A stretch of DNA of 39,086 nucleotides from Verrucomicrobiota bacterium. Its GTDB lineage: Bacteria; Verrucomicrobiota; Verrucomicrobiia; Opitutales; Cerasicoccaceae. The notes beneath the pieces are model-generated. The model did not search any database, was not told the DNA's origin, and saw only the letters and a list, made by a program, of their open reading frames with translations. Numbering within the stretch: position 1 is the stretch's first letter; each line of letters starts with the position of its first letter. Shown piece by piece: positions 18,214-35,963 of the stretch. The DNA is taken from NCBI GenBank assembly GCA_039818205.1, contig JBCBUK010000023.1:1-39086 (forward strand), written 5' to 3'. The position numbers were made by a program, and so were the translations under genes.

Positions 18214-19248
18214 ATGAGCGACTCCAACCCTGACCAAGAACGGAAGCGTCTTGAAGAAATCGCCGCCAAACTCCCTGGCGAAGTCGTATCTCGAGAAGTT
18301 GCATTCCCCAAAAAACGCCAGCGACCTAAGGCACGCCTGCCTGAACCGGTTCGCCAAAAAATCGAGGATGAGACCTCGAAAGACGCGGCCTCCGACTCCG
18401 CTGCAGATGCAGCCGCCAAGTCTGCGGAAAAGCCAAAATTTAAAGTCACTCGCTCGCCATTTGCTCCTCGCATTGACCAGCCGGCCAAGACCATTGAGCC
18501 GGAGACGTCCACTAGCTGGACGGATGATGAGGAAGAAGCAAAGCCCGCTGCCAAAGCTCCTGTAGCCAAAACGCCGGAACCAAAGGCCAAGGCTGAGCCC
18601 AAACCACTTCCAACCAAACTCGAGGTCACCAAGCCGGCTCCTACCAAGGTAGAACCTGCTGCCAAGGAAGCTCCTAAGCCAACTCCAGTTGAGAAAAAGG
18701 CAGAGCCCAAGGCACCCGAGGTCGCGAAGCCAGCCGCTAAAAAGGTTGAAGAGGAGCCAGCAGACAACATCACGCCTTTCATGCCAGAGCCGGCAAAGGC
18801 TCCTGCAGCCAAGCGCGAAGTAACTCCCGCGCCGAAAAAGGTCGAGGAACCAGCGCCCAAGAAGGAAGAAAAGCCAGCGGCAAAAGCGGCACCGATTTCT
18901 CCGAAAAAAGAGGAAAAGCCCGCAGCCAAAGCATCGCCCATCTCTCCGAAGAAGGCAGCTCCGACCAAACTTCCGGTTCAGCCTGCAGCGAAGACCGAGG
19001 AGAAGCCAGCCGAAGAGAAACCGGCCGAAGCTCCCGCTACTTCCCCGACTCGTTTGCCAAAACCCGCAGCCGCCGCTCCAAAGGCAGCACCGCGCCCCAA
19101 AGCAGCCCCGACTCAGGTTCGCCACGGTCACGAAGAAGAGATCGAAGAGGAAGAAAGCGTCAGTTTCGCGTGGGTTGCAGTTGACGCAATTGCCGCAGCG
19201 GTTTCTCTTGTTTTCGCAGTGCTCGTGTTTATGAATTCGGGTCTGTAA
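18214..19248 (+). CDS. Pro/Ala/Lys/Glu-rich disordered protein with C-terminal membrane anchor
   Basis: Low-complexity P/A/K/E body, acidic EEEIEEEE stretch, terminal hydrophobic helix. Same strand as its neighbours. Confidence 0.8.
   Translation: MSDSNPDQERKRLEEIAAKLPGEVVSREVAFPKKRQRPKARLPEPVRQKIEDETSKDAASDSAADAAAKSAEKPKFKVTRSPFAPRIDQPAKTIEPETSTSWTDDEEEAKPAAKAPVAKTPEPKAKAEPKPLPTKLEVTKPAPTKVEPAAKEAPKPTPVEKKAEPKAPEVAKPAAKKVEEEPADNITPFMPEPAKAPAAKREVTPAPKKVEEPAPKKEEKPAAKAAPISPKKEEKPAAKASPISPKKAAPTKLPVQPAAKTEEKPAEEKPAEAPATSPTRLPKPAAAAPKAAPRPKAAPTQVRHGHEEEIEEEESVSFAWVAVDAIAAAVSLVFAVLVFMNSGL
18856..18954 (+). repeat. Intragenic 45-nt tandem repeat (about 2.2 copies)
   Basis: Encodes PKKEEKPAAKAAPIS-PKKEEKPAAKASPIS-PKK. 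Synonymous positions have diverged. Confidence 0.75.
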
Positions 19249-19277: not shown

Positions 19278-19607
19278 ATGGCATCTGAGAAAATACATAA
19301 TCTCTCCACCGACACCTTTGATGGTGTAGTGAACGAAGCAGCCACGCTGGTTCTCGTCGACTTCTGGGCACCCTGGTGTGGCCCTTGTAAGGCGATCGCA
19401 CCGATCCTGGACGAACTAGCCGACGAAATGGACGGCAAGGTTCAAATCTGCAAGGTGGACGTTGACAATAACAGCGAGCTCGCTGGCAAATATAACGTGC
19501 GGGCGATTCCAACTATGCTTGTTTTCAAGAACGGCAGCGTGGTTGATCAAATCGTCGGTATGACGAGCAAAGCTGATCTCAGCGCTAAGTTAGAGGCTCA
19601 AGCCTAA
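19278..19607 (+). CDS. trxA: Thioredoxin
   Basis: LVDFWAPWCGPCK active site and cis-Pro motif AIPT. 109 aa. Confidence 0.97.
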   Translation: MASEKIHNLSTDTFDGVVNEAATLVLVDFWAPWCGPCKAIAPILDELADEMDGKVQICKVDVDNNSELAGKYNVRAIPTMLVFKNGSVVDQIVGMTSKADLSAKLEAQA

Positions 19608-19639
19608 GAAGACCCCGAGTCACTAATACTAACTTTCTG

Positions 19640-19673
19640 ATCCCGCATTCCTCGCGAATGCGGGATTCTTTTT
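19640..19673 (+). terminator. Rho-independent terminator of trxA
   Basis: ATCCCGCATTC-ctcgc-GAATGCGGGAT perfect 11-bp stem followed by TCTTTTT. Confidence 0.88.
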
Positions 19674-19737
19674 GTCCAATTGAATAGGGCCAAACACATA
19701 GCTGGATTAGGCCCTCTCAAGGCATAGAAATCAGTAC

Positions 19738-19773
19738 AAAAAGAGTCCCCGCCGAACGACTCGGGCGGGGACT
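19738..19773 (-). terminator. Minus-strand Rho-independent terminator
   Basis: AGTCCCCGCC-N10-GGCGGGGACT perfect 10-bp stem, followed on the minus strand by CTTTTT. Confidence 0.85.
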
Positions 19774-19774
19774 G

Positions 19775-19802
19775 GCTGCTACTACTACTACTGCTACTAC
19801 TG
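19775..19802. repeat. Imperfect trinucleotide repeat (CTR)9
   Basis: g-ctg-cta-cta-cta-cta-ctg-cta-cta-ctg read directly from the sequence. Confidence 0.9.
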
Positions 19803-20018
19803 ACTGAAATGATGGGTTTTATCCCAACAATTATTTCGTCAATATATTAATCGACTTGTTCCGAAAAACCTTTCGCAATTATGCGAATTTTTTCCGGAAA
19901 AAGGTGTTTTTTAAACAAGGGCTGCCAGTTGATAATCAACTATCGCGAAACCCTAAGGACTATAATTTAGTCCTTACAATCAAATTCCTGGATCCCAATA
20001 CCGAAACTGGCCCCAGAT

Positions 20019-20213
20019 CTAATTATCGTATCCGACTGGCTCGTCGTCAGATAGGTATTTGAACTCGTCTGCCTGACGCTGAGTTTCATAATCGAGGACC
20101 TTCTTTTCCTTCTCGTAGGTCGCGCGCTGCTCAGGGGTCACCTGAGCCGATTCACAGCCACTAAGAGCAACGAATGCCAAAATTGAAGAGAGAAACGATA
20201 CGGATATTTTCAC
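20019..20213 (-). CDS. Small lipoprotein, last gene of the ccs operon
   Basis: MKISVSFLSSILAFVALSG|C lipobox. Its GTG overlaps the ccsA stop codon (GTGA). Confidence 0.7.
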   Translation of the reverse strand: MKISVSFLSSILAFVALSGCESAQVTPEQRATYEKEKKVLDYETQRQADEFKYLSDDEPVGYDN

Positions 20214-22024
20214 GACTTAGTCAGTTTACTTCCCCAAAACTTAATCGGAGTCAAGCCGATGGCAATCACCAAGACCTGGCTGAACCAAAAGATCATCAGC
20301 CAACGGAAGGCAGCATCCATAAACCCATACGAGTGCAACCCGATGCCCAACATATTGGTCCCAAACCAACTCCAAGCGGTGATGATATTGCCAAAAATGG
20401 CCAAAAGCATAAATCCACGAGCCTTCACCAGACCGCCCCAGCGCGCGTGTAACATCAAGGCGCCCCAGAGAACGATCAGTAGCGCACCATTTTCCTTAGG
20501 GTCCCATCCCCAGAAACGGCCCCAGCTTTGGTCCGCCCAGATTCCCCCAAGCATAGTCCCGACAAAGCTGAACAGAATACCGAAGCACGTGATCCCGTAG
20601 CACATCCGGTAGAGAGTCGAGGCCATGTCTTTCGTAATACCCGGCGTCAACACGCCGCCGATCACATACAAGATTCCGAGGCCACCGGCCAAAAATACAG
20701 CACTGTAGCCCGCGGTAATGATGATCACGTGAGTAGCCAGCCAGAAATTCGAATCGAGAACTGCCTGCATCATCTCCAATGTGTCTCCCGAGAGACTCAA
20801 ATTATGCGCGATTACGAGCGTACTAAAACCAACAAGGGCGGACACGAAGCTCCCCAAGCCATTCTTGCCGATCTTCTCAAGAACGATGCCCAAAATAATC
20901 GCAACCCAACCCACAAATATGGCCGATGAGTAAAGATTCGTTACCGGCGGCCGTTCTTGAATGTACATTCGGGCGAATAATGCAAAGGTATGAACCGCAA
21001 ATGCCCAGCATAGGAGCCAGAACGCCGATTTCTGTAAGGTCGACGAACCATTCAACCAATACACGGCAACCAGGAGCATGATAATCACATAGATGATGCT
21101 CGCTTGGTAAAATGGTTCAAGGCGGTTAAAGAACTGCTCAAATCCGACGCGTCCAGTATCATAGTCGGGCTCGAGTAAGGTCTGAAGCTCCTCAGCCTCC
21201 GATAGGAAGGCCGCTGCATCGCCGTCAATGTAGGCGGTACCCATATTCCCATAACCACCGACAACTGGATTCAGTTCGCCCGTGCGAATCGTCTCGAGAA
21301 GCGCCTCACCAATGTTCAACCAAGCCTCAGGATTCTCGGCGTTCTCCGGCGGCGGAGCGATACCCAGTTTCGCAGTTCCTGATATGCGCATGTAATACTG
21401 TGCGAGGCTAAGGAAAGGCACCAAAACTTCCTCGTTGTAGGTCTCACCACGTTCACGGCGACCAAACTCTTCGGCACCTGGAATCGCGATCTGCGGCCAG
21501 ACAGCGTATTCTGGCCCGGGGTCAAAAGACGTGCCGATCTGGTTGTAGAACATCAGCGAGTTGGCGAGCTTTAGCAGGGCTTTGTCGAATGCGTTTCGCT
21601 GCTTCGGCTCTTCAGGAACCTGACGAGTTTGTTGATCGATTATCGTAAAGTGAGGCTCCAACTCATTCCATGAGAAATACTTGCGATCTTTTTGCTCCCA
21701 TCCAAAGAGCCCCAGAACATCGGGATTATCAATCCGAAAAACGGGGTAGTCGTCGGCTACACTTGGTTTGAAAGCGAGATCCAAGAGCCATTGGTCTGCG
21801 GTAACCTTCTCACCGTCCGAGGTCTTGACCGTCGTCTTTCCCTGTAAGACCCGTAAGCTATTCCGTGCAATCGAATCCAGAGGAAGGACTCTCCCCCCGC
21901 TTTGGACCGGCAATTTGGCAAATGCCGCTACATCAAACTCTCCCTTACTAGCGTTCTTAAATAGGCCGCTAAGAGTGATTAGGATGCCAAGGGCAAGCGC
22001 GATATGGGGAATGTATTTCTTCAT
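20210..22024 (-). CDS. ccsA: System II cytochrome c biogenesis protein CcsA/ResC with large N-terminal periplasmic domain
   Basis: WWD motif WADQSWGRFWGWDPKE, RPPVTNLY, VLDSNFWLATH and GLHSY heme-ligand histidines. Confidence 0.92.
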   Translation of the reverse strand: MKKYIPHIALALGILITLSGLFKNASKGEFDVAAFAKLPVQSGGRVLPLDSIARNSLRVLQGKTTVKTSDGEKVTADQWLLDLAFKPSVADDYPVFRIDNPDVLGLFGWEQKDRKYFSWNELEPHFTIIDQQTRQVPEEPKQRNAFDKALLKLANSLMFYNQIGTSFDPGPEYAVWPQIAIPGAEEFGRRERGETYNEEVLVPFLSLAQYYMRISGTAKLGIAPPPENAENPEAWLNIGEALLETIRTGELNPVVGGYGNMGTAYIDGDAAAFLSEAEELQTLLEPDYDTGRVGFEQFFNRLEPFYQASIIYVIIMLLVAVYWLNGSSTLQKSAFWLLCWAFAVHTFALFARMYIQERPPVTNLYSSAIFVGWVAIILGIVLEKIGKNGLGSFVSALVGFSTLVIAHNLSLSGDTLEMMQAVLDSNFWLATHVIIITAGYSAVFLAGGLGILYVIGGVLTPGITKDMASTLYRMCYGITCFGILFSFVGTMLGGIWADQSWGRFWGWDPKENGALLIVLWGALMLHARWGGLVKARGFMLLAIFGNIITAWSWFGTNMLGIGLHSYGFMDAAFRWLMIFWFSQVLVIAIGLTPIKFWGSKLTKS

Positions 22025-23373
22025 GCCGCTGCTTTCTTTTTAAGGCGGGAGACAAAGCGTGAGAGGCTAATCCCAAATTGAATGGTCATCCCAAGACCAA
22101 CCATCAGGACTGCCCAGTATGGCAACGTCCAATAAGGATTGCGGACGACCTGCAGGATAGACGTCTTATCTTCGTTGGCAAAGCTCGCCTGGAAAAAGGT
22201 CAGCCCTTCGTAGCGCAACGGATGATTCATATAAATGAGCACCGGCCGATTCTCACCCGTCTCAGGATTATCGATGACGACATCACTGGAAAAATTCTTC
22301 GGAATCTGCGTCCCCGGATAGAGATCGTGTTTAAAGTCTTCGAGCTGCAGTGTGTAAGGCAGATAGTGGCGTTTGAACCGAACCGCGATATCGTAGCGTT
22401 TGCCTTCGTACACAAAGCCTTGTGGAGGAATGCCGGGACCAAAGCCCGAGCTCAGCAACCAGCTTCCCTGCGACTTTCCGCCAGGAGCAATCACCTCCAC
22501 AACGGCGGCACCCAGGTTGCGCTCATCTTGGGCGAACGTTGGCGGCTGCTCCTGCAAGATGCCACCCATCCGCGGTGCAAAACCCTTCAATTCTAGGCCG
22601 TCCGAGCGCAAGATTGGCGCGCCATCCTCTGCTATCACAATGACTGAGGGATCGCTCAAACTGGTGATCGAGCGATTGACTTGGCGAAACTGCGACTCGC
22701 TCATGTTGGCGCCACCTGATGCCATCTGCTGATATTGCCCCAGAAGCGAAGCCCGCATCCCGGCACCGGCATTTTGCATCGCTGCGTGAGGGATGACCTT
22801 AAAACCGTTGGGCAACTCGATCGGTTTGCCGGAGTAAAGCATCGTAAAGGGAACGCTGGTAACGATATCGTCGGTCGCACCAGAGCGGTCAATCAGGACC
22901 AATTCCTCGTGGTGAAATGAGGTAGAGTAGTTGACCGGGGGTCCCCCCTCGTCCAGCTGCATATTGCTCTCTTCTTGCATGGCCGCGGTCAGAAAGCCGC
23001 TCACGAGCAAGAGAAGAACGCCGAAGTGCAAGACTACGATACCGACCTTTTTCCAGGATGGCTTAAAGTAGCGGAAGTGGGCGCAGGTCAAGTTGACCAA
23101 AAGTAGCGCACCAAGCGTCTTGCCGCCCGGCAACGGGAAAACAATGTGGGCCAGGTCGGGATCAAAAAAATGGGACGTGAATACCTTGAAAAGCGAAAGA
23201 AAAGGCGTGAGTACATACCAGCTCTCAAAGTAGAGCTCTTGCGTGTGGTGAATGCCCCACTGAACCTGATCCAAAGTTCCAAAGAAGACCAAGACAATCG
23301 AAAAGAATAACAGCGCGACTGTTAGACCCAAGGATCCGAAAAACCGGAATACAGAACTAAAAAGCGAGTTCAT
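22021..23373 (-). CDS. resB: System II cytochrome c biogenesis protein ResB/CcsB-like
   Basis: Three N-terminal TM helices with HFGVLLLL, F..DLYPGTQIPKNFSSDV, MNHPLRYEGLTFFQASF and a C-terminal TM. ATGA overlap with ccsA. Confidence 0.82.
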   Translation of the reverse strand: MNSLFSSVFRFFGSLGLTVALLFFSIVLVFFGTLDQVQWGIHHTQELYFESWYVLTPFLSLFKVFTSHFFDPDLAHIVFPLPGGKTLGALLLVNLTCAHFRYFKPSWKKVGIVVLHFGVLLLLVSGFLTAAMQEESNMQLDEGGPPVNYSTSFHHEELVLIDRSGATDDIVTSVPFTMLYSGKPIELPNGFKVIPHAAMQNAGAGMRASLLGQYQQMASGGANMSESQFRQVNRSITSLSDPSVIVIAEDGAPILRSDGLELKGFAPRMGGILQEQPPTFAQDERNLGAAVVEVIAPGGKSQGSWLLSSGFGPGIPPQGFVYEGKRYDIAVRFKRHYLPYTLQLEDFKHDLYPGTQIPKNFSSDVVIDNPETGENRPVLIYMNHPLRYEGLTFFQASFANEDKTSILQVVRNPYWTLPYWAVLMVGLGMTIQFGISLSRFVSRLKKKAAA

Positions 23374-26686: not shown

Positions 26687-27679
26687 ATGCTACGTATACG
26701 CCTAATCACCCTACTGTTATTACTCGTGGCACCCATGCTCCAGGCACAAACGCCCGAAGCAACCGAACTGGAGCCAATTCCGAAACAGGACATCGGTTAC
26801 ATTGATGCACTCGTGCTCGGCCTGGTCGAAGGCATTACCGAATACCTACCAATTTCCTCAACCGGTCACCTGATTTTAACAAACCGTTTGCTCGGTCTCG
26901 ACGCGGCAACGCCACTGGTCGATAAGGAAACTGGCATGTCCCTGCTCGACGACGAGGGAAATCCGGTGACACTCGAGGACGTAGCCAACGCCTACGCAAT
27001 TATTATTCAAGCGGGCGCAATTGCTGCCGTTGTCCTCCTCTACTGGCGCCGCCTGCTCGACATGGCCTTTGGCCTCCTCGGAAAAAGCCCGACTGGCTTC
27101 AAGCTCGCTCGGAATTTGATCGCTGCATTTCTGCCGGCCGCGGTCCTTGGGCTACTCCTGGATGACCTAATCGAAAGCTATTTGTTCAACCCGACCTCGG
27201 TAGCCATTGCCTTGATCGCAGGCGCCGGACTGATGCTTGGCGTCGAAGCCTGGCGGAAAAAGCAACCGCCCAAGGACGAAGCGAACACCAAGGATCTCCA
27301 CCAAATTTCGATCCCTCAAGCCGTCGTCGTCGGTTTCCTGCAGTGCGTCGCGATGTGGCCCGGAACCAGCCGGTCTATGATGACGATCGTGGGCGGCTAT
27401 GTCATTGGTTTAACTCCGAAACGAGCTGCAGAATTCAGCTTCCTCCTTGGCCTCATCACGCTAACAGCGGCATCAGGCTATAAAGCGGTAACCCTTGGGC
27501 CGACCATGCTCAAAGCGCTTGCGCCGGGGCCCGCCCTGTTCGGGATTGTCGTCGCCTGGATTTCGGCTGCGCTGGCAGTCAAATGGCTGGTCGCCTATCT
27601 ATCGAAACACGGGCTTGCATTATTTGCGTGGTATCGCCTTGTCCTAGCGGTCCTCGTCTTCGCATTCCTTGTTTTCTAG
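26687..27679 (+). CDS. uppP: Undecaprenyl-diphosphate phosphatase (BacA)
   Basis: LGLVEGITEYLPISSTGHL, IQAGAI, PGTSRS, AAEFSFLL and FAWYR. Confidence 0.93.
   Translation: MLRIRLITLLLLLVAPMLQAQTPEATELEPIPKQDIGYIDALVLGLVEGITEYLPISSTGHLILTNRLLGLDAATPLVDKETGMSLLDDEGNPVTLEDVANAYAIIIQAGAIAAVVLLYWRRLLDMAFGLLGKSPTGFKLARNLIAAFLPAAVLGLLLDDLIESYLFNPTSVAIALIAGAGLMLGVEAWRKKQPPKDEANTKDLHQISIPQAVVVGFLQCVAMWPGTSRSMMTIVGGYVIGLTPKRAAEFSFLLGLITLTAASGYKAVTLGPTMLKALAPGPALFGIVVAWISAALAVKWLVAYLSKHGLALFAWYRLVLAVLVFAFLVF

Positions 27680-35872: not shown

Positions 35873-35963
<91 letters not shown>

Follow-up and report, generated by a model that had tools for sequence, protein, structure and literature searches.

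A probable family of UAG-repeat small RNAs in Cerasicoccus and related genomes

What is encoded in the gap between the convergent trxA and ccs genes of a Cerasicoccus genome is the question addressed here. The window, which is the whole 39,086-nucleotide stretch of DNA analysed, is contig C23 of genome G000 (4.85 Mb, 99.97% complete), and coordinates given below without a contig prefix refer to it. ORF and Pfam calls bear out that trxA and the ccs gene set face each other across 411 bp, and the minus strand of this gap carries a run of AGU and AGC triplets (the AGY tract, where Y is a pyrimidine) directly ahead of a GC-rich stem-loop. A sequence-only reading of the window had proposed an undescribed small RNA (sRNA) with an unstructured tract and a terminator of its own, which would pair with CUACU motifs in the leaders of mRNAs or titrate a UAG-binding protein. 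The first part of that proposal is strengthened by conservation, membership of a family, covariation and the lack of an Rfam counterpart, whereas CUACU does not hold up as a leader motif; and the single locus that had been described is one member of a multicopy, order-spanning family. To judge from sequence comparison, 19842-19736 quite probably encodes a genuine small RNA that belongs to a new family. We consider this the best reading because the locus combines a characteristic architecture, conservation against a background that cannot be aligned, covarying stems, membership of a multicopy family that is restricted to a single order, and the lack of an ORF.

Architecture and conservation of the candidate RNA

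The minus strand of the gap presents in succession an A-run with a weak hairpin and a T-run behind it, a conserved block, a small hairpin, the AGY tract, a GC-rich stem-loop and a U tail (Table 1). It reads UUGGGAUAAAACCCA, then CAGUCAGUAGUAGCAGUAGUAGUAGUAGCAGCC (19806-19774), then AGUCCCCGCC...GGCGGGGACU plus CUUUUUGU (19773-19736), and the 5' end of the RNA is probably near 19834. Nine contiguous AGU/AGC units stand before the terminator, and Tandem Repeats Finder reports a period of 3 with 7.7 copies at 19779-19801. The 107 nt segment 19842-19736 has a minimum free energy of -33.6 kcal/mol (z -3.90), and none of 200 shuffled sequences folds equally well. The hairpin at 19773-19744 is rich in GC and passes directly into a U run, as in an intrinsic terminator; the list of the terminator pattern scan does not include 19773-19736. 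Sequence and fold agree with the sequence-only reading on a second strong minus-strand terminator preceded by a UAG/CAG repeat and a small 5' hairpin, and the unpaired AGY tract between the two hairpins is the presumed functional site.

ORF calls on both strands likewise uphold the earlier statement that no start-containing ORF covers the repeat: no frame beginning with ATG, GTG or TTG runs through it on either strand, and a 13-aa plus-strand ORF (19809-19850) merely touches its edge. Small-protein readings, namely the Val-rich and Ser-rich frames and a plus-strand GCYYYYCYY* frame, were rejected as having neither a start codon nor a conserved frame.

Close relatives of G000 are Cerasicoccus arenae, C. 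maritimus, C. frondis and a Puniceicoccales metagenome-assembled genome (MAG). A BLAST search with a 421 nt gap query against 40 relatives gives matches in 5/5 congeners at 74-81% identity. Only query positions about 107-294 (window about 19914-19727) take part, and the remainder of the query has no match in these genomes. In all six Cerasicoccus orthologs the tract is flanked by invariant UUUCAGUCAGUAGUAG and GUAGCAGCCAGUCCCCG, and the number of AGY units ranges from 10 to 16. Among the same six sequences one pair of the 5' hairpin is fully compensatory (UA to CG) and inner pairs of the terminator covary (GC/CG/UG and AU/UA); the U tail is interrupted in three of the six, all of them congeners (CUAUCUGUGU or CUCUCUGUUU). 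The trxA-ccsA gap of related genomes had been singled out beforehand as the place where a repeat that matters should be conserved and its stems should covary, and the block is indeed kept in all five congeners with compensatory changes.

The position of the candidate RNA suggests another origin. In 5/5 congeners it lies behind ccsA in the same orientation, and so could be a 3'-end product of the ccs (cytochrome c biogenesis) operon; trxA, by comparison, is its downstream neighbour in none of the five within the flanks examined. The hairpin, tract and terminator would then form the 3' end of the ccs transcript, with a role in cis in mRNA stability or 3'-end protection, or would yield an sRNA derived from the 3' untranslated region (UTR). 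The weakness of the hairpin that intervenes between the ccs genes and the tract is in keeping with this, and some members of the family do lie directly behind a stop codon (locus L070 in genome G012, and G000:C3:184573, which stands behind a coding gene). However, a spacer of about 180-210 nt that cannot be aligned lies between the last ccs ORF and the RNA, and the A-run, hairpin and T-run occupy the same place in 6/6 genomes although their stem sequences differ. This element looks like a weak bidirectional terminator and is probably the ccs operon's own. Just 3' of it lies the conserved block, which in the congeners reads GGAACATGTCG..TAT(A/T)(T/A)T, is invariant or nearly so among the six genomes, and includes a -10-like TATATT. 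The other three family members of G000 are at loci unrelated to ccs, one of them with TTGAAA-17-TATTAT upstream, and UAG-rich tracts are no general feature of terminators: at least four UAG within the 35 nt upstream are found at just 4 of 4,681 leniently called terminator-like sites (six in the 19774-19806 tract on C23, five at C4:308310, and four each at C11:135552 and C11:29334), and the maximum in 4,677 control windows is three. We therefore regard a ccs 3' end as an unlikely explanation, and favour a separate RNA that would be transcribed from its own promoter.

With its near-palindromic form around ACATGT, the GGAACATGTCG motif may serve as the operator of some regulator. A search of the genome for the 12-mer of the promoter-like block, allowing up to one mismatch, returned 22 sites, with no regulon pattern apparent from their flanks.

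A multicopy family within one order

Two covariance models were built, R1 from the six orthologues and R2 from 31 aligned matches, and 19736-19842 scores 109.6 bits (E 1.7e-25) with the former and 88.6 bits with the latter. R1 has matches in 16/16 genomes of the taxonomic family at E<=1, with 1-7 matches per genome and a best E below 1e-5 in 12 of the 16. With R2, 15/121 genomes of an order sample are positive at E<=1e-3, several other families among them, and 2/151 genomes of a class sample, both from the same order as Cerasicoccus. This order, which also contains the Puniceicoccales MAG, we take to be Opitutales. The genomes of other orders of the class (about 131, being 150 minus 19 genomes from families already seen in the order sample) gave no R2 match. 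Weak BLAST matches elsewhere also show an AGY tract abutting a terminator. One match to a 22-nt pattern, in a Cytophagales MAG (L021), was set aside as chance; it lies in apparent coding sequence and lacks the sRNA architecture.

We define the UAG-tract family by a 5' hairpin, a C-poor tract with at least three UAG, a GC-rich terminator and an end-to-end match to R1 or R2, all of which are found at 19736-19842. Four members are present in G000 itself, and there are three weaker look-alikes (Table 1). Two types can be distinguished. Type B is widespread and consists of a hairpin, a core of the form ...UAGUAGCAGUAGUGGUAGCU(U/G)AAG and a GCCGYCG-type terminator; this non-repetitive core is conserved over six genera and further families. 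Type A, the locus in the window, occurs in Cerasicoccus only and has its triplets expanded; it may represent a Cerasicoccus-specific, repeat-expanded paralogue of an older type B family. In the type B copy of G000 a small ORF begins with an AUG whose counterpart in congeners is CAG or UAG.

The secondary structure is shared throughout the family. In the 31-sequence alignment, whose fitting to the covariance model favours the structure, 95.0% of 539 cells are paired, compared with 65.0% in shuffled and 34-52% in slid versions; all 20/20 pairs change on both sides, and none of 500 shuffles attains any of these measures. The 5' helix contributes 5/5 pairs that change on both sides (96.4% of cells paired) and the terminator 12/12 (97.7%). 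The tracts have a median length of 34 nt and a median of five UAG, where about 0.6 UAG per 40 nt would be expected at random, and their composition is 34% A, 31% G, 23% U and 11.5% C. Paralogues each hold several UAG, but in varying number and spacing, with no fixed single seed.

At L070 (G012:C57:30060-30178, plus strand) the tract begins at the stop codon of the upstream gene and runs into the terminator. It reads ...AAG CAG UAG UAG UAA UAG UAG UAG UAG CAG C, an arrangement of the 3'UTR type with tandem in-frame stops.

These features also bear on whether the tract is simply a neutral trinucleotide microsatellite that lies beside a terminator and has no function. A unit number that varies by species, and the long pure (AGU) run in genome G003, are typical of slippage. 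Even so, the tract and both of its flanks are invariably present in 6/6 genomes within a surrounding spacer that cannot be aligned, the type B core is conserved without being repetitive, and the family is without a match in the other orders of the class sampled. Moreover, AGY runs of at least six units occur just twice in the 4.85 Mb of G000, counting both strands; both are directly 5' of a terminator and both belong to members of the UAG-tract family. A functionless repeat seems to us extremely improbable.

No Rfam family accounts for these RNAs. With Rfam 15, the whole window at the gathering threshold yields a tRNA at 35873-35959 alone; in E-value mode the best match to 19600-20030, VrrA, scores 19 bits where the gathering score is 50; and six paralogue and orthologue loci have no match. 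Full-text literature searches found neither a description of a UAG-repeat RNA family nor described sRNA regulators in Verrucomicrobiota. The locus and its relatives probably make up a new sRNA family in which the presumed functional site is an expandable triplet repeat, and this is unusual.

Candidate protein partners and pairing with start regions

The distal face of Hfq binds A-R-N repeats, and class II sRNAs such as ChiX carry (A-R-N)n. The (AGU)n/(AGC)n units of the tract are perfect A-R-N and stand just upstream of a U-tailed terminator, as in those sRNAs. UAG is also the triplet of TRAP and HutP, whose arrays in Bacillus leaders use repeated UAG as a protein recognition code; and the CsrB/RsmZ and CrcZ sponges share with our candidate a short motif repeated in open RNA and followed by a terminator, several paralogues, and a motif number that varies. 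The RNA could thus be a ligand of a classical RNA-binding protein, either as a class II Hfq sRNA, as a (G/U)AG array for TRAP or HutP, or as a CsrB-like sponge. The Pfam models do not favour this: Hfq (PF17209) has no match in G000, in spite of its near-complete assembly, and five control genomes are positive; CsrA, TRAP (TrpBP) and ProQ have no match in G000 either, with control genomes again positive, and HutP was not searched. TRAP and HutP arrays have spacers of 2-4 nt and occur in 5' leaders, where they govern a terminator further downstream, whereas the Cerasicoccus triplets follow one another without a gap, the RNA closes with a terminator of its own, and no same-strand gene follows that could be attenuated. 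The tract at 19774-19806 contains no GGA; its motif is UAG/GUAGU and not GGA or A-rich, it is short, with 4-13 motifs, and any sequestration by it would be by analogy. A ligand of this classical kind is accordingly a very remote prospect.

The only candidate partner found in G000 with the Pfam models tried is RRM_1, which is represented by two glycine-rich single-RRM proteins (82.6 and 74.1 bits). One of the two genes is at G000:C39:929-1252 and the other is on contig C2. Within the order sample RRM_1 is found in 15/15 sRNA-positive genomes and in 77/106 others. We give this co-occurrence little weight, because kin are not independent and because RRM_1 is present in 92/121 genomes altogether. 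RRM ligands known elsewhere provide a precedent. A probe carrying GUAGGAUA three times is bound by Bacteroides thetaiotaomicron RbpB with a dissociation constant (KD) of 5.1 uM, and a C/U motif is not bound (10.1101/2021.04.27.441718); and rGUAGUAGUAGUAGUA, described as four GUAGU motifs, is a standard ligand of the Musashi RRMs (PMC6584500). Musashi binds the same repeat as that of the tract through GUAGU units, although it is a eukaryotic protein with two RRMs, and the Cerasicoccus RRMs resemble Musashi and hnRNP A1 no more than they do many other RRMs. Since RRMs elsewhere are known to bind a GUAGU repeat, the presence of this fold supports a protein code in the tract; and since the number and spacing of UAG vary and the RRM is the sole classical RNA-binding fold found, we favour a protein code over an antisense seed.

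A bacterial precedent can be seen in the FopS/GibS-RbpB system of B. thetaiotaomicron. The FopS RNAs form a 14-copy family with a single-stranded stretch and a Rho-independent terminator; RbpB binds them, and they repress initiation regions of susC (PMC11697453). Common to both systems are the multicopy family and its architecture, a host without Hfq, CsrA or ProQ, small single-RRM proteins with disordered tails, the origin of a few members from 3' ends, and a polysaccharide-degrading host with poor Shine-Dalgarno usage; the G/U/A motif of RbpB also includes GUAG (10.1101/2021.04.27.441718). The differences are considerable. There is no kinship in sequence, the FopS consensus (PMC11697453) being unlike the tract by eye, and no Rfam match; Cerasicoccus belongs to the Verrucomicrobiota and has four copies as against 14; and its single-stranded stretch is internal, with a hairpin on either side, and consists of a triplet repeat of variable length whose binding and targets are predicted.

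By this analogy we suggest, as a tentative reading that falls somewhat short of an even chance, that the candidate acts in trans through its UAG tract, as a FopS-like sRNA associated with RRM proteins. It would be a trans-acting RNA of about 100 nt with a 5' hairpin, an open AGU/AGC tract offering GUAGU/UAG motifs, and an intrinsic terminator. The tract would form a multivalent landing site for the glycine-rich single-RRM proteins, which would either be titrated by the RNA or aid its pairing with (ACU)n/CUACU near start codons. Binding of an RRM protein and pairing with mRNA need not be mutually exclusive, to judge from FopS and RbpB.

The enrichment of ACU at start codons keeps short-seed pairing alive, and it raises the possibility that the RNA is purely antisense, with the AGY tract serving as a degenerate seed on (ACU)n/CUACU in initiation regions poor in Shine-Dalgarno sequences and blocking initiation with no protein partner. 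Gene starts for the genome-wide counts were taken as the first ATG of ORFs of at least 150 aa with overlaps pruned, a crude caller that gives 3,332 ORFs and whose start-call errors dilute positional signals. The leaders of G000 are G-poor and lack a Shine-Dalgarno peak, and the start context is Kozak-like, with A/G(-3) C(-2) C/U(-1). This lack of enrichment is seen despite a 16S rRNA that ends in CACCUCCUUUCU, and 0/7 test k-mers for complementarity were found in the main 16S copy. The near/far ratio of (ACU)2 is 3.76 (60 near, 37 far), the highest of 20 strand-specific triplet-repeat classes; AAC is second (2.05), the composition-matched ATC stands at 1.59 and the sense AGT at 1.01. Of the genomic copies of 7-mers that are complementary to the tract, 28.4 per mille fall in -30..+3, as against 9.0 for reversed and 8.75 for sense 7-mers, and over 1,596 genes the profile of the complementary 7-mers reaches 28 in -10..-1 from a baseline of about 7. 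A peak at the start is seen with the reversed control as well, however, with 34 over a baseline of about 15 in the same number of genes.

Individual sites stand directly at start codons, as had been pointed out from the sequence. ACTACTGC lies at 1083-1090, immediately 5' of the ATG of a 1140-aa GH16/CBM protein (ACUACUGC-AUG in the RNA), and CCCTACTC precedes an ATG of the BacA/UppP ORF at 26687. ACU leaders also stand before the genes at G000:C24:16540, C3:56225, C4:141754 and C4:298893. The 5' region of the GH16 gene has no DNA match in five congeners. A CTACT enrichment before start codons, which had been proposed as a check, is not borne out. CTACT ranks 198 of 1024 5-mers in -25..-1 and is therefore no special leader motif; at -5..-1 it ranks 15th, with 13 genes, as part of the general A(-3)C(-2)C/U(-1) context.

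Longer pairing does not favour an antisense mechanism either. In -40..+20 there are 52 complementary sites of at least 9 nt, and the reversed control gives 66; when each is set against its own upstream windows, the ratio is 2.1x for the target and 1.4x for the reversed sequence, and the longest site measures 11 nt in either set. The 20-nt core of type B, with up to four mismatches, has no extended target in G000, its matches being three antisense strands of sRNA genes and two 4-mismatch loci outside called ORFs and start regions. In a duplex-energy scan of 3,323 start regions the energies of real and reversed tracts overlap, and for two of the four sRNAs they fail to separate. A free variation in unit number and UAG spacing would also be unusual for a seed. 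Across genomes, the share of (ACT)2 in translation initiation regions relative to baseline is 3.35x in the whole of G000, and was followed in partial sequence (400-800 kb) of four further genomes, in which counts are small. It is raised in the sRNA-positive G008 of the same family (800 kb; 4.21x, 21/485, rank 1), but not in the sRNA-positive G046 of another family (0.95x, 3/303); of two sRNA-negative genomes, G220 shows 2.51x (7/286) and G111, with 64% GC, 0.62x (1/161). Taken with the points in its favour, a purely antisense RNA appears to us rather doubtful.

A second 16S-like sequence with a different 3' end (GGAUUACCUCCUUUUAGGG...) is present near base 566 of the small contig G000:C49. It may stem from a contaminant, an organelle or another organism in the assembly.

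Several results weigh against an RRM-associated, FopS-like RNA in its turn. The ACU signal on which assisted pairing would draw is owed in part to the general start-codon context, and the count of long sites, the type B core without an extended target, and the opposite behaviour of G046 and G220 bear on it just as they do on unassisted pairing. As to the partner, RRM_1 occurs widely across the order; by sequence the Cerasicoccus RRM is of a generic kind and does not indicate a UAG-specific subclass, with PABP, SF3b49, Hu and hnRNP A1 scoring alike; and no UAG-rich tract occurs in the UTRs of the RRM genes. As to the RNA, minimum-energy folds of family members leave a median of 47% of tract positions unpaired. 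Its constant place behind ccsA in the congeners and the consensus scan, which called no sigma-70 promoter upstream of it, both speak against independent transcription, and the promoter regions of the four paralogues are mutually dissimilar.

A bolder version of the RRM-associated reading, which we think distinctly doubtful, holds that UAG-repeat sRNAs are multivalent RRM decoys, an RRM counterpart of CsrB-CsrA, with a capacity tuned by triplet expansion. If this is true, free-living Verrucomicrobiota would have in such decoys their first defined post-transcriptional regulators, and an expandable triplet repeat as a functional RNA site would be an unusual route to evolving regulatory strength. 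How RNA-based regulation works in bacteria without matches to Hfq, ProQ or CsrA is a question to which first answers have come from Bacteroides, by way of RRM-1 proteins. The bacteria considered here are marine polysaccharide degraders, and cultured strains (the Cerasicoccus type strains) hold a conserved, multicopy and easily mutated RNA family. The candidate site is obvious and the same repeat is a textbook eukaryotic RRM ligand, so that the idea of dedicated sRNA partners for bacterial RRMs outside Bacteroidota is testable.

Features of the locus and neighbouring genes

The positions of the candidate RNA, its parts, its paralogues and the neighbouring genes are collected in Table 1. The suggestion that trxA has a terminator of its own is confirmed at 19639-19667 on the plus strand, where 12 pairs are followed by CTTTTTGT.

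Table 1. Coordinates of the candidate RNA, related loci in G000 and flanking genes (positions without a contig prefix are those of the window)
Feature	Position	Strand	Basis or remark
Candidate sRNA, whole	19736-19842	-	End-to-end covariance-model matches, about 97-107 nt
Promoter-like block: CGGAACAAGTCG (19863-19852) and -10-like TATATT (19846-19841)	19841-19866	-	Near-invariant in the six-genome alignment; putative role
Small 5' hairpin, core UUGGG-AUAAAA-CCCA	19811-19828	-	Fold and covariation
AGY tract CAGUCAGUAGUAGCAGUAGUAGUAGUAGCAGCC, 33 nt	19774-19806	-	6 UAG, 10 AGY; unpaired in centroid fold
Terminator stem-loop AGUCCCCGCC(C)...(G)GGCGGGGACU, GC-rich, 10-11 bp	19744-19773	-	Fold and covariation
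U-rich tail CUUUUUGU of terminator	19736-19743	-	
A-run, weak 6-bp hairpin (3 GC pairs), T-run	19862-19893	both	Listed as terminator-like on both strands; between ccs operon and sRNA
Type B family member of G000	G000:C11:135496-135588	+	Between cysK and a MoxR-like gene
Further family member	G000:C11:29298-29396	-	
Further family member	G000:C4:308250-308350	+	
Weaker look-alike	G000:C30:14701-14803	-	
Weaker look-alike	G000:C22:38087-38191	-	
Weaker look-alike	G000:C3:184573-184672	+	
trxA	19278-19607	+	Pfam Thioredoxin, E 2.5e-34
64-aa lipoprotein-like ORF	20019-20213	-	
Cytochrom_C_asm protein (cytochrome c assembly)	20210-22024	-	
ResB	22021-23373	-	

Just upstream of trxA is a 344-aa ORF (18214-19248, plus strand) without a Pfam match. 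Its sequence is of low complexity, rich in proline, lysine and glutamate, and it contains tandem repeats of 15 and 18 nt at 18995-19110.

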